Shown here one piece after another: positions 47,586 to 53,673 of a stretch of DNA of 64,000 nt. The stretch comes from an uncultured Gemmatimonadota bacterium (lineage in GTDB: Bacteria > GCA-2686955). Numbering within the stretch: position 1 is the first letter of the stretch; every line of letters begins with the position of its first letter. The notes beneath the pieces were generated by a model. The model saw nothing but the letters and a program-made list of their open reading frames with translations, did not search any database and had not been told where the DNA came from. The translations under genes were made by a program, and so were the position numbers. The DNA lies in the NCBI GenBank assembly GCA_964490075.1, contig CAZBBK010000002.1:50105-114104 (forward strand), in the 5' to 3' direction.

Positions 47586-48284
47586 TCAAGGCCGCGCCGC
47601 GAAGCGCAGGATGTGATAGACGGCGGCGATCCCGTCGCGCCAGGTGATCTTCTTGCCCTCGACGTAATCGCGGCCGTAGTAGGAGATCGGCACCTCGTAG
47701 ATCCGGCAGCGCAGGCGGGCGATGCGGGCGGTGATCTCGGGCTCGACGCCGAAGCGGTCCGACTCGATCCGAATCCGCTGCAGCACGTCGCTGCGAAACA
47801 CCTTGTAGCAGGTCTCCATGTCGGTGAGGTTCAGATTGGTGGTCATATTCGAGAGCAGGGTCAGCGCCCGATTGGCCACGTAGTGCCAGAACAGGTGGAC
47901 GCGATGCGGGCCGCCGAGGAAGCGCGAGCCGTAGACCGCGTCGGCCTGCCCCTCGAGGATCGGCTGCAGCAGCTTCGGGTAGTCGCGGGGGTCGTACTCG
48001 AGGTCGGCGTCCTGGACGATCACCACCTGCCCGCGCGCCTGGGCGAAGCCGGTGCGCAGCGCGGCCCCCTTGCCGCGGTTGACGCCGTGGCGCAGCACCC
48101 GGTGCCCGGCCGCCTCGAGCTGGTTCAGAATCGCATCGGTGCCGTCGCTGGAGCCGTCGTCGACCAGGATCAGCTCGCGCTCCAGCGGCTCGGGGAGGGG
48201 GGCACGCAGCACGCTCTCGACCAGAGGCTGGAGGGTGCGCACCTCGTTGTAGACCGGGATGACGATCGATACCAGCTTGATCAA
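47586..48284 (-). CDS. GT2 polyprenyl-phosphate sugar synthase (DPM1/GtrB/ArnC-like, soluble form)
   Basis: SIVIPVYNE...VDDGSSDGT...QDADLEYDP (DxD); 232 aa; TTG start with GAGGGAG RBS proposed; 4-nt overlap with the upstream gene. Confidence 0.65.
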
Positions 48285-49492
48285 ACTCTTGCTCCCTCTC
48301 GTTCGTTGGGGCCCGCGCCCACGCCGGCGGCTCCCTGCCCGCGGGAGGCCACGCGCACGTAGGTGGAATAGAAGAGGCGGCGATGCCAGCCGAGATCGCG
48401 GATGCGCATGCCGGGGGGCAGGTCGCGGCTGGCATGCGCATGGTAGTAGATGTTGTGGCTGGAACCCTGCCGCCTCTGGAAGTCGGCGTGGTCGCGGTTC
48501 ACGGAGTAGTAGAGCGGCGCCAGCGAGACGCCGATCCGACTGCCCTTCAGCACCCGCTCCATCAGCTCCGGCAGCGCCGGCCGGCCCTTCAGCACCGGCG
48601 ATTCGGCCACCATGTGCAGCTCGCCGTGGGGTGTGAGGAGTGCATCGAGCCCGCTCAGGATGCGCTCCACGATCTCCAGCCCCAGCGCGCCCCCATAGCC
48701 GTCCCGATTGCGGGTGCGCTCCGCCTCCGGCATCCACACGTAGGGGGGATTGGCGACCACCAGGTCGTAGCGGCCCGCGCCGGCGGCCAGGTCGGCCACC
48801 CGGAAGGTCGGAGCGGAGGGGGCGCCGCTCAGGCGCGCGTTGAGCTCGGCGAAGGCGATCGCCCGGGGATTGATATCGCTGCCCTCGACGCTGCCCGCCC
48901 ACGGCGCCACGGTCAGCGCCTGAACGCCGCAGCCGCAGCAGAGGTCGAGCGCGCGCTCGAAGCGGCGCCCGCCCAGGTGGCGTCGCAGCAGATCGGAGAA
49001 GAGCGCCGAATCGCGGCCCAGGTAGACGAAGTCGGGAATCGAGCGATCGTTGCGATCGGTCACCAGCAGCGCGCCGGAGAGCGGCACGAAGCGCAAGCGC
49101 GAGCGGATCCCGGCTTCGTCCTCGGCGAGGATCTCCAGCTCCAGCAGGCGCTCGAGGGGGGGGCACTCGGGCAGCTGGGCCAGGCTGCGCGACCAGAGCG
49201 CGCGGGGTGCGGCCTCGTTCAGGAAGAAATGGCCCAGCAGGCGGGCTTGCAGCGGATGGTGCAGCCCGAAAAAGTCGCGGTGCAGCCGCGGCGCCACCGA
49301 ATGCTCCATCAGGCGCCGCCCGCCGCCCCCCAGAGCGGCGCGCAGATTCGACCATTCCAGTGGCCACGCGAAAGGGTTCGCCGCCGTCGGCACGCGCTCG
49401 ATGGCACGGTAGCGGGCCCGGCCCAGGGCACGGTGCAGGGCGCCCACCGCCTCGTTCCAGGCGCCGCTGCCGGGCGGCGCTGCGCTGCTCAC
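48281..49492 (-). CDS. class I SAM-dependent methyltransferase with NPPY motif (HemK/PrmC/RsmC-like amino-methyltransferase fold)
   Basis: [12 protein letters not shown]-binding motif I and LVVANPPY motif IV; GTG start inferred from a 4-nt overlap with the carbamoyltransferase stop. Confidence 0.55.
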
Positions 49493-51192
49493 GCCGCCTT
49501 TCCCTCGGGCGCGGTGCACAGGTAAGGGCCGAGCGAGAGGGCATCGAGGTGGCCGAGGGTAAAGGCCCGCACGGCATCGTCGGGACTGCAGACGATCGGC
49601 TCCTCGTGCATGTTGAAACTGGTGTTGACGATGCTCGGGATGCCGGTCTTGCGGTGGTAGTGGTCGACGATGTCGTAGTAGAAGGGATTGGTCTCGCGGC
49701 GCAGGAGCTGCGGGCGGGCGGTGCCGTCCACGTGCACCACGGCCGGTGCCTGCTCGCACATCGAGGGCGTGCAGTCGAAGGTCACGGTCATGAACTCCGC
49801 CGCTCGCTCGGCCCCCTCCAGGCCCAGGTAGCAGCGGCTCGCCTGCTCGATCAGCGTGACCGGCGCGAAGGGCATGAACTCGGTGCGGTGCAGCGCCTTG
49901 TTGAGCCAGTCGTTGACCGAGGGATCGGTCGGCTTGTAGAGAATCGAGCGATTGCCCAGCGCGCGCGGCCCGAACTCCATGCGACCGCCGAAGCGCCCCA
50001 CCACCTTGCCCTCGACCAAGAGCGATGCGATCTCCTCTTCGGGATGGTCGGGGCGGCGCCAGGAGAGCCCGGCGCGCTCCAGCGCCGCCCGCATCTCCGG
50101 CTCCGAGTACTCCGGTCCCCAGTAGACGTCCTTCACCGGCGCCGGGAGCCGCCGCTCGCGCGTGCACCAATGATCGAGCGCCGCGCCCCAGCCGAGGCCC
50201 CCGTCGGCCATGTGGGGAAAGACGAACACCGACTCGACCCCGGGCAGCTGGTGGATCCGCTGGTTCAGCTTCACGTTGGCGAACACGCCGCCGGCCAGTC
50301 CGACGCGCGAGGCACCGGTCTGCTCCACCCAGTGCGCGGCGAAACTCTCCAGGGTTTGCTCGAGGACGACCTGAAAGGCCGCGGCGAAGGGGCCGGGGCC
50401 GCAGCGCTCCAGGATCCGCTTCATGCGTGGGTAGGTCCCGTAGATATGGGGCGCCGAGAAGGTCCGGCCATTGGCCCGCACCAGGTCGCGGCACAGGCCC
50501 AGCGCCTCTTCGTCGGGCGGATCGTAGGCCGCCAGACCGGTCACCTTGCCCTCGTGGCGCCCCGGCTTGTAGCCCAGGGCCTTGGTGGCCGCGCCGTAGA
50601 AGAGCCCGAGCGAGTGCGGCACCCGCACCCGGTGCAGGCATTCCAACTTGGCGCCGCGGCCGCGATAGACCGCCGCGCTGACCCCGCCGCCCTGGCCGTC
50701 GCAGGTCAGCACCAGGCCCTCGTCCCACCCCGAGCCGTACCAGGCGCAGGCGGCATGGGCGCGGTGATGGTCGACTCGCAGCACTTTGTGGTCGGGGATC
50801 CCCTCGGCCTTCAACCAGCGCCGCAGCTGGCCGTGCAGGTCGATGATGTCGATGGTGTTGCGGGGGAATCGCCAGCCGTAGATCGCGGCGGCCGTGAACA
50901 ACCGCTCGCGCAGCGGGATCGCGCCCCCTGTCCAGTAGGGATGGCCGAGCAGATGGCGGTTGTTGGAGCGCAGCTCACGCGGCCAGGGCGGTTTGGCGAC
51001 CACCACCCGGTCCAGCTCGGCGCTTCCGATCCCGGCCTCTTGCAGGAGCCAGCGCACCGCCAGCACCGGCACGCCGCGGTGCCGCTTGCGGCGGCTGAAG
51101 CGCTCCTCGTTGGCGGCCGCCACCAGGTCGGGACCGTCGAAGAGAGCGGCTCCGGCATCGTTGTCCAGCTCCGAGATCCCCAGAATCCACAT
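49489..51192 (-). CDS. NodU/CmcH-family carbamoyltransferase
   Basis: [19 protein letters not shown]-terminus, HHRAHAA motif, C-terminal carbamoyltransferase domain; 567 aa. Confidence 0.8.
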
Positions 51193-52319: not shown

Positions 52320-52353
52320 GCTCCCCTCCGAGCACACGAGAGATGTGGGGTTC

Positions 52354-53673
52354 TCAATCGCTGTTGCGTGAGGAGAGACGGGTGCCAGCCGGGCGCACGG
52401 GTGCCCGCGGTCGATTCGGCCAGAGGCGCAGATAGACACCCACCGCCGAGAGGATCAGGTAGAGCGGCAGCACCTGGGCACGGTGCCGGTAGGCGGTGCC
52501 CACGTTGCCCTCGACCAGCGAGTAGATCAAGGTGAGGTTGATCGCCACGATCGCGACCACCCAGGCCTCGATCCGGCCGTGGCGTACCACGAAGCGCATC
52601 CCGACCAACGCCTGGTAGAGGAAGAAGTACCAGACCAGGGTCTCGGGCAGCGCGGAGAGCTGCAGGCCGGAGCGCACCTGCCAGGGGAAGGGGCCGAAGA
52701 GGAAGTAGGCCATGCCCCGGGGCAGCCAGCTGAGCGCCCCGCTGGCGGTCGAGATGTCCTCCCCCGCGCCCCCGTAGGCGCCGGAGCCCTGCGAGAGCCC
52801 CTGGTGGATCTGTTCCATGGTCTCGAGGGCTTCGGAGGCGCTCGCGGTGAGATGTCGGCTGGTCAGACCGAGGTAGTGGAATCCGAGCAGCAGCGCGGCG
52901 CACAGCGCCAGTCCCACCACCACGTTGCGGTGCACGTGCTCGCGCCGCACCACCACGAAGGTCATGATGACCGATGCAGCGGCCACCACCGCGGTCGATT
53001 CGCGCAGGTTGAAGAGCAGAAAGAGCCAGAGAAAGACCGCGATTATCGGGCGGGTGGCGACCCGATAGCGAAGCTGTACCAGGTGCCAGACGATCGCGGT
53101 CACCGCCAGGAAAGCCCAGGGATCACGGATGTTGACCGAGGACCAGAGCACCATCGAGGGGAAGAAGGCCACCAGGGCCATGGCGATGATGCCGATCTGC
53201 TGGTTGAAGAGGGCGCGGCCGATCTTGTAGGCGTAGACCGAGACCAGCGAGCCGACGATGACGTTGACGAACTTCGGCAGGAACTTCACGTAGCCCGCGC
53301 ACCAGAACACCACGCCGTTCACATAGAAGAAGAAGCGCTCTGTCGAGAAGCGCGCCCGGAAGGGGTAGTCGAGATCGCCGCTCCAGTACATCGCCATCTG
53401 CGAGCCGATGCGGCTGAACGACGCCTCGTCGGGCGCGAAGGAGAGCGAGATGCCCGTGAAGTGCAGCACCGGCACCAGCAACGCACGCACCGCCACGGCG
53501 GCGAGGAAGATCTTGAAGACCTGCGGCCCCGCGCTGCGCGGCAGGAGGCGCCGGCCGAGCCAGATCCCGGCCCAGAGGATGAAGAGGGCGGCGGGAACGC
53601 CGACCACCAGATCGTGGAAGGGGTGGACGCTGGGCGTGGTCTGAAACCACCACTCGTCTTTTATTTCGAACAT
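52354..53673 (-). CDS. polytopic membrane protein, GT-C fold glycosyltransferase (ArnT/PMT_2-like) or Wzy-like polymerase
   Basis: about 10-12 TM helices; DE motif (FAPDEASF) in an early periplasmic loop; 439 aa. Confidence 0.45.
   Translation of the reverse strand: MFEIKDEWWFQTTPSVHPFHDLVVGVPAALFILWAGIWLGRRLLPRSAGPQVFKIFLAAVAVRALLVPVLHFTGISLSFAPDEASFSRIGSQMAMYWSGDLDYPFRARFSTERFFFYVNGVVFWCAGYVKFLPKFVNVIVGSLVSVYAYKIGRALFNQQIGIIAMALVAFFPSMVLWSSVNIRDPWAFLAVTAIVWHLVQLRYRVATRPIIAVFLWLFLLFNLRESTAVVAAASVIMTFVVVRREHVHRNVVVGLALCAALLLGFHYLGLTSRHLTASASEALETMEQIHQGLSQGSGAYGGAGEDISTASGALSWLPRGMAYFLFGPFPWQVRSGLQLSALPETLVWYFFLYQALVGMRFVVRHGRIEAWVVAIVAINLTLIYSLVEGNVGTAYRHRAQVLPLYLILSAVGVYLRLWPNRPRAPVRPAGTRLSSRNSD

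Follow-up and report, generated by a model that had tools for sequence, protein, structure and literature searches.

A predicted polyprenyl-phosphate sugar synthase and a GT-C-fold glycosyltransferase in a Gemmatimonadota glycan operon: candidates for a periplasmic glycosylation branch

INTRODUCTION

Periplasmic glycan modification by a GT-A polyprenyl-monophosphate (Pol-P) sugar synthase, a flippase and a glycosyltransferase (GT) of the GT-C class is known from the Gtr, Arn and CsbB/YfhO systems (PMC13390465). GtrA/GtrB/GtrC, responsible for O-antigen glucosylation, ArnC/ArnE-F/ArnT and CsbB/GtcA/YfhO follow a common logic: a lipid-monophosphate sugar, produced on the inside, is consumed on the outside. 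Here, we analyze a glycan operon in a 64-kb stretch of DNA from an uncultured Gemmatimonadota bacterium (hereafter the window, meaning the whole stretch that was analyzed). Like those systems, it brings together in one glycan cluster a GtrB/ArnC-related GT of family 2 (GT2; 232 aa, 47586–48284, minus strand) and a polytopic GT-C protein (439 aa, 52354–53673, minus strand). It differs from Gtr and Arn in that the window holds no GtrA or ArnE/F-type small flippase, that the GT2 lacks the C-terminal transmembrane (TM) helices of GtrB and ArnC, and that the GT-C could not be related by sequence to ArnT or the solved GT-C enzymes. Unlike in the Gtr, Arn and CsbB systems, the two genes do not adjoin: four others lie between them, and linkage is rare in other genomes.

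The nearest analogues of a TM-less synthase are found in the GacI/GacJ/GacK/GacL and PpgS/Rv3632/Rv3779 systems. GacI and PpgS are not known to have TM segments of their own. Both are GT2 Pol-P-N-acetylhexosamine (HexNAc) synthases that work with small membrane partners, GacJ and Rv3632, and feed a GT-C enzyme adding a polysaccharide side-chain sugar; in the streptococcal GacI/J/K/L system, the Wzx-family GacK is required for this addition (bioRxiv 10.1101/180810). The window operon likewise carries a Wzx-type gene, but it has no GacJ/Rv3632 (DUF2304) partner, its GT-C belongs to a different family and its host is a diderm, as indicated by the LptD, BamA-like and TamB genes in the window.

RESULTS

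We propose that the 232-aa GT2 makes a Pol-P sugar and that the GT-C adds this sugar to a glycan in the periplasm, a reading to which, from sequence and model comparisons, we assign a probability of roughly 0.55. Both open reading frames (ORFs) lie at the coordinates given in the original prediction, on the minus strand, in agreement with a frame plot of GC content at third codon positions (GC3) and with independent Joint Genome Institute (JGI) gene calls that contain the same 232-aa and 439-aa products (metagenome 3300009128, contig Ga0118727_1000086, 162.5 kb). The GT2 start could be specified as a TTG with a Shine–Dalgarno sequence (GAGGGAG) 8 nt upstream; it overlaps the stop codon of the upstream methyltransferase gene by 4 nt (TTGA), a translational coupling that ties the GT2 to the operon. 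The GT-C gene starts with ATG. One ENA call uses an internal GTG at 53607, giving 417 aa, but in homologues at 65% identity the alignment covers 99% of the 439-aa form. Homologues of both proteins are numerous, so that neither ORF can be attributed to chance in a 70% GC sequence.

The GT2 matched the full Pfam Glycos_transf_2 domain (1.5e-36). Its full-length NCBIfam matches were AglJ (7.8e-31), PpgS (7e-23), ArnC (6e-20) and a haloarchaeal dolichyl-phosphate (Dol-P)-hexose transferase, whereas the PgfS model covered residues 5–170 and the majority of the remaining listed GT2 models just the first ~100–130 residues. The best PDB sequence matches were the Dol-P-mannose synthase (DPMS) of Pyrococcus furiosus (PfDPMS; 5MLZ) and three ArnC structures (~1e-16, residues 2–212); PfDPMS and ArnC were also the structures nearest to its model, of which 218 residues superpose on PfDPMS. 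The DPM1/GtrB/ArnC-like reading of the original prediction was supported, full-length matches being to polyprenyl-phosphate sugar synthases only. The other, ordinary GT2 of the operon (310 aa) aligned with it only in the N-terminal nucleotide-binding part, with 14 bits.

Functional residues of PfDPMS (PMC5526996) were mapped via the PDB sequence alignment onto the alignment of the GT2 family. E12, D89/D91/Q93, R117, F177 and the acceptor-loop residues R202/K208 of PfDPMS correspond to E14, D92/D94/E96, R121, F178 and R205/K211 of the GT2, all of them family-invariant. The segment D92-A-D94-L-E96, in particular, is invariant in the family and aligns with 89-DADLQ-93, the DxD metal and donor site of PfDPMS.

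In contrast to PfDPMS and human/type-I DPM1, the GT2 has no TM domain: no TM segment was found, the maximum 19-residue hydropathy being 1.07, in line with the claim that C-terminal TM helices are missing. Helices 131–149 and 215–230 of its model occupy the positions of the two PfDPMS interface helices, and the second is amphipathic (hydrophobic moment, muH, 0.54). PfDPMS without its TM domain is still membrane-bound and active (PMC5526996), and GacI expressed without GacJ is active and present in the membrane fraction (bioRxiv 10.1101/180810), so that the absence of TM helices is no obstacle for the GT2. On the strength of the full-length synthase matches together with the retained DPMS residues and helices, we therefore read it as a predicted Pol-P sugar synthase, one that stands outside all named equivalogs.

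The 439-aa protein is polytopic, with ~11 membrane helices. Its sole family match was Pfam PMT_2 (PF13231, residues 135–262) at 26.1 bits, exactly the gathering score; about half of its homologues also have this match. We obtained no NCBIfam match, no match to the Pfam hidden Markov model (HMM) Wzy_C (PF04932), no meaningful PDB sequence match with either the single sequence or a 62-sequence profile, and no ArnT or PMT sequence match, even with the family profile. The AlphaFold model was confident (pLDDT 90, pTM 0.91). Fold comparison identified it as GT-C(A), with the N-terminal helices in the conserved GT-C module, and not as WaaL-, Wzy- or SEDS-like, which supports the GT-C reading of the original prediction. 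Neither of the outcomes named beforehand as counter-evidence, a clear Wzy_C match with no GT-C signature for the membrane protein and a match of the GT2 to an ordinary processive GT2 model, was obtained. The top fold matches were oligosaccharyltransferases, with AglB first; a Foldseek search returned the same families and, weakly, WaaL (E 0.016, TMq 0.28). Oligosaccharyltransferases carry a C-terminal periplasmic domain. The modeled protein is entirely membrane-embedded and has no periplasmic domain of this kind, and we therefore rejected an oligosaccharyltransferase identity for the family. Compared with ArnT (GT83), PMT (GT39) and the membrane domains of AglB, PglB and STT3, it lacks a large periplasmic domain, a WWDYG-type motif and a DE dyad, and instead has its own C-terminal signatures, FxPFPW, LPE and EGNVGTAYRHRAQ, as well as a frequent Wzy_C neighbor.

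A DE motif had been noted in an early periplasmic loop. D82-E83 indeed belongs to the first loop predicted to be periplasmic: it follows a TM helix at a distance of ~11 residues, and because an RRLLPRS loop precedes this helix, the positive-inside rule places D82-E83 in the periplasm. Asp82 was invariant in 62 of 62 homologues, in the context F-[AG]-[PG]-D-x-x-T-Y, whereas position 83 was Ala in 26, Gln in 12 and Glu in only 10 of them; the aspartate thus stands, but there is no conserved DE dyad of the GT39 kind. Also predicted to face the periplasm, from helix boundaries and the positive-inside rule, are the FPSxxLWS-x5-D184 segment, residue R224, both the FGPFPW and the LPE motif and the EGNVGTAYRHRAQ loop; the conserved residues of the family cluster on this side. 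On the cytoplasmic side, the prediction places the basic C-terminus and three loops, RRLLPRS, RYRVATR and RREHVHR. Mapping of D82 via homologues that match PF02366 gave no correspondence, as these alignments begin downstream of the Asp; its putative equivalence to the catalytic Asp of ArnT or PMT is therefore based on topology and position.

We analyzed the gene context of 83 GT-C loci, with at most 10 kb of flanking sequence in either direction; many loci are truncated, so that all counts are lower bounds. Five contained a GT2 orthologue, compared with ~0.3 loci expected by chance for a single-copy gene. They represent three lineages: that of the window, Gemmatimonadota L027, and the Pyrinomonadaceae L070, L079 and L084. 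The GT2 orthologues of L027 and L079 share one co-directional cluster with the GT-C gene or genes, a Methyltransf_23 gene, GTs of family 4 (GT4) and an AsnB-type amidotransferase gene. A relative at 65% identity (L002) has kept the order carbamoyltransferase, methyltransferase, GT2. In the window, four other operon genes stand between the GT2 and GT-C genes, and few genomes link the two.

The chromosomal site itself is conserved in L011, a relative whose GT2 is 84% identical and whose neighborhood is the same (transketolase, integrase, patatin, glutaredoxin, GT2, metallo-beta-lactamase-fold (MBL) protein, tetratricopeptide repeat (TPR) protein, amidase, CoA-transferase). Because L011 keeps the GT2 at this site without the other glycan genes, the GT2 is a core gene and not an island gene, and a variable glycan locus has arisen around it. 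We consequently rejected the idea that it was brought in with the glycan island: L011 holds it between glutaredoxin and MBL genes without the other 11 genes. In the window, glycan genes lie to either side of this conserved core GT2, an arrangement that requires either two insertions or two deletions. The MBL gene after the GT2 in L011 encodes a protein with 43% identity to the window MBL; a role as conserved GT2 partner was rejected for it, since it is not beside the GT2 in L007, L008 or L012. Two response-regulator/kinase genes (57332–59881) that lie between patatin and glutaredoxin in the window are absent in L011.

Several observations weigh against the proposed division of labor. No GT2 orthologue occurred within 10 kb at 78 of the 83 GT-C loci. 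The GT2 family has many homologues and is very large and ~65% identical across phyla; its genes usually stand alone in housekeeping contexts, as in the three distant contexts L007, L008 and L012, where they lie beside recA or clpX or near lpxK. Together with L011, where the other 11 glycan genes are absent from the neighborhood (9299–11441), the GT2 was unlinked to a GT-C in four of four GT2 contexts examined. It also falls far below every named equivalog cut-off, with 107.5 bits against 325 for AglJ, 81.2 against 370 for PpgS (its second-best NCBIfam match), 71.5 against 529 for ArnC and 55.9 against 500 for PgfS. Of the acceptor-phosphate ligands of PfDPMS, R117 is kept (R121), but R131, S135 and K178 have given way to invariant H134, N138 and G179; two further invariant residues, R177 and R128, are nearby. 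Finally, the called genes of the window include no small membrane protein or flippase of the GtrA, ArnE/F, DUF2304 or SMR type. The synthase and GT-C pair of the original prediction is supported as to both enzyme classes and loose as to linkage; from gene context, a functional pairing is plausible, but the two genes are seldom kept as neighbors.

Many of these points would also fit a GT-C that uses a Pol-P sugar in the periplasm without having the GT2 as its dedicated supplier. The GT2 would then be a housekeeping synthase that supplies several pathways, or else an ordinary cytoplasmic GT2 acting on a chain linked to undecaprenyl diphosphate (Und-PP) or an AglJ-like initiator, and would simply happen to lie within a variable glycan locus. 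AglJ, its best NCBIfam match, starts a Dol-P-linked chain. The high conservation and mostly stand-alone occurrence of the family, its retention in L011 without the island and its absence near most GT-C genes all lean this way. We nevertheless consider this explanation doubtful, because the GT2 is translationally coupled within the operon and shares clusters with the GT-C in three lineages, and because a GT-C enzyme of this type would need a Pol-P sugar donor for which the window offers no other candidate synthase.

The GT-C belongs to a sizeable family: an exhaustive profile search returned 2082 cluster representatives at E ≤1e-30 and 8506 at E ≤1e-10. Among GTDB species representatives, it is spread mainly over Gemmatimonadota, Acidobacteriota and Myxococcota, the Acidobacteriota being Vicinamibacteria and Blastocatellia/Pyrinomonadaceae, including the cultured Pyrinomonas methylaliphatogenes. 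The nearest relative (65%) comes from an uncultured Gemmatimonadota metagenome-assembled genome, which hints at the origin of the window. Globally, 47 of the 83 loci had a Wzy_C-like ORF within 10 kb, and in ~24 a Wzy_C gene directly adjoins the GT-C gene on the same strand. Ten of the Wzy_C-like ORFs were sampled; Pfam identified every one as Wzy_C, nine with a score above the gathering threshold. The Wzy_C-adjoining loci comprise L010, L015, L018–L020, L022, L024, L025, L034, L043, L044, L048, L051, L053, L055, L057–L059, L062, L064, L075, L077 and L078, and several of the adjoining Wzy_C proteins carry C-terminal TPR repeats. Poly_export genes were present in 18 and Wzc-like genes in 17 of the 83 loci. 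Orthologues of the GT4 encoded directly downstream of the window GT-C gene (51192–52337) occurred in 43 loci (median 228 bits), 30 of them within 2.5 kb, and relatives of the Methyltransf_23 protein (53752–54717) were found near the GT-C gene in 10.

This habitual Wzy_C adjacency distinguishes the clade from the known systems; to our knowledge, no functional connection of GT-C(A) enzymes with Wzy_C has been described. Since a Wzy_C gene directly adjoins the GT-C gene in ~24 homologous loci, the family accompanies Wzy_C enzymes in clusters for heteropolysaccharides and is not itself a Wzy. Loci of Pyrinomonadaceae and Blastocatellia contain two or three tandem GT-C paralogues, often followed by an AsnB-type amidotransferase gene (L079, 9848–14295; L084, 9848–14333; L089, 6810–11314; also L068, L070, L082, L086, L088 and L093). 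Such tandem paralogues suggest several successive periplasmic additions.

The same context bears on the acceptor. If the GT-C acted on something other than the operon glycan, the targets would be secreted proteins, as for PMT, or lipid A or its core, as for ArnT and RgtA-D, with the GT2 in the role of Ppm1, ArnC or RgtE. We regard this as unlikely: it would agree with PMT_2 as the only Pfam match of the GT-C and with the diderm host, but the missing sequence match to ArnT or PMT speaks against it, and the family lies almost always within heteropolysaccharide clusters, beside Wzy_C and GT4 genes, which points to a polysaccharide acceptor. Less probable still is a further possibility, namely that the clade with the FxPFPW, LPE and EGNVGTAYRHRAQ motifs is a dedicated partner of Wzy_C-type enzymes handling Und-PP-linked repeat units and, where no Wzy is nearby, is itself the polymerase or ligase of the flipped glycan. 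If true, the GT-C would be a Wzy-independent GT-C polymerase or ligase at such loci, the window included. Least likely, and rejected here as very improbable, is the alternative already raised in the original prediction, in which the 439-aa protein would supply the polymerase or ligase that a Wzx-containing, Wzy-less operon lacks, with Und-PP-linked repeat units as donor: WecA-like and Wzx-like genes in a window without Wzy_C, WaaL, Wza or Wzc, top fold matches that use Pol-PP-oligosaccharide donors and the weak WaaL match would suit it, but there is no Wzy_C HMM match, the fold is of another class, the C-terminal periplasmic domain of oligosaccharyltransferases is lacking, and a confirmed Wzy_C gene lies directly beside the GT-C gene in ~24 of the 83 loci and within 10 kb in 47.

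We delineated the operon from the GC3 frame plot and inspection of start codons, since raw mechanical ORF lists contain many spurious frames at 70% GC. Minus-strand coding is unbroken from ~56.84 to 41.66 kb and consists of 13 tightly packed co-directional genes (56839 to 41658) with no sizeable intergenic gaps. Family assignments are from Pfam unless stated otherwise. The first gene encodes the ordinary GT2 of 310 aa (55907–56839), followed by a GT4 of the GT-B fold (54714–55907), the S-adenosylmethionine (SAM)-dependent methyltransferase of the Methyltransf_23 family (53752–54717), the distantly PMT_2-like GT-C(A) enzyme (gene 4) and the GT4 directly downstream of it (gene 5). Gene 6 (49489–51192) is a carbamoyltransferase of the NodU/CmcH type (Carbam_trans_N and Carbam_trans_C; NodU model 4e-33) and gene 7 (48281–49492) an MTS-type SAM-dependent methyltransferase. 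Gene 8, the predicted Pol-P sugar synthase of the DPMS/ArnC/GacI/PpgS type, is followed by a GT4 that is stp2-like (46415–47572; Pfam and NCBIfam), a WecA/MraY-family polyprenyl-phosphate HexNAc-1-P transferase (45225–46418; PF00953, 1e-29), a MOP/Wzx-type flippase (43654–45228; Polysacc_synt_3, Polysacc_synt, MatE and MOP flippase models), a further GT4 (42395–43657) and, as the last gene, the MBL protein (41658–42398). All 13 are on the minus strand. The WecA/MraY-family protein matched the WecA model with 6.8e-29, below the model cut-off, and is, as judged by sequence, the predicted initiating enzyme of the operon.

The carbamoyltransferase and the two methyltransferases of the operon point to a sugar with O-carbamoyl and O-methyl groups. 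The carbamoyltransferase is 79% identical in L002, and a relative is found near the GT-C in six of the 83 loci. The MTS-type methyltransferase carries ~160 additional N-terminal residues that match no family, and its start is ambiguous: 49492 gives 403 aa, whereas 49519, the start of the JGI call, gives 412 aa and an overlap with the carbamoyltransferase gene. The only flippase type in the window is the Wzx/MOP type. No Wzy_C, WaaL, Wza or Wzc gene was found among the called genes of the 64 kb, so that the product of the locus is either a non-polymerized oligosaccharide or dependent on genes elsewhere in the genome.

The remainder of the window is housekeeping in character, with genes for aromatic amino-acid synthesis, RseP, BamA-like, TamB and LptD proteins, amidases, transketolase and two-component regulators. 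The end of the operon and the TPR gene are separated by two toxin–antitoxin-like modules, both absent from L011: a nucleotidyltransferase (Polbeta/NTP_transf_2) with an NTase_sub_bind/HEPN-like partner (39858–40549, minus strand), and a PIN-domain gene with a small ORF upstream (about 40880–41389). Elsewhere, a fusion of a response-regulator receiver with PglZ (16335–17885, plus strand) follows a histidine-kinase-like ATPase gene (15121–16332), and a 631-aa ORF (19516–21411, plus strand) combines good coding statistics with no Pfam match. The gene of a WbqC-like protein (24563–25309, plus strand; E 4.5e-72) is flanked by those of a Mur-ligase-like protein and an ABC ATPase and lies upstream of an LptD_2 gene. 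The two N-acetylmuramoyl-L-alanine amidase genes are at 33669–35849 (minus strand) and 37007–38713 (plus strand); one of the two has two Amidase_3 stretches and the other TPR/YfiO-like and AMIN domains.

DISCUSSION

Folds, motifs, predicted topology and gene order are established directly by our analysis, and they support the periplasmic branch put forward in the original prediction. How the branch might work can be sketched from the gene set. The WecA-like enzyme would start an oligosaccharide on polyprenyl phosphate, as Und-PP-linked sugar, at the cytoplasmic side of the membrane, and the four GT4 enzymes and the 310-aa GT2 would lengthen it in the cytoplasm. Two methyltransferases and the carbamoyltransferase may decorate it by O-methylation and O-carbamoylation, before the Wzx-type flippase would bring it across the membrane to the periplasmic side.

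Meanwhile, the 232-aa GT2 would sit on the cytoplasmic membrane face by way of its two amphipathic interface helices and, as its sequence and fold suggest, transfer one sugar from a nucleotide sugar to polyprenyl phosphate, yielding a polyprenyl-monophosphate sugar. This could be flipped by the Wzx-type protein of the operon, by analogy with the Wzx-family GacK, or by a flippase encoded elsewhere. The GT-C enzyme would then move the sugar onto the flipped glycan or its downstream product. For this it would use D82, in the first periplasmic loop, as the candidate carboxylate for catalysis or metal binding, together with invariant residues that form a ring and are predicted to face the periplasm (R224, the FxPFPW motif, P343-E344 and N390/R396/R398/Q400); the invariant arginines are candidate phosphate ligands. 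In this scheme we infer the donor, the acceptor, the flippase of the Pol-P sugar and the pairing of GT2 and GT-C.

These results leave the established concept of glycosylation in the periplasm from lipid-phosphate sugars as it is. For this glycan locus, they mean that its only unassigned polytopic protein is a predicted periplasmic GT-C transferase and not a polymerase. Beyond the locus, the analysis defines a very conserved family of TM-less, DPMS-like GT2 proteins, which would be a reasonable target for an annotation model. The same holds for the GT-C family, for which there is no NCBIfam model and whose 439-aa member Pfam reaches at threshold only: it is a sizeable, unstudied family in soil and sediment phyla, where its genes habitually lie beside those of Wzy_C enzymes.

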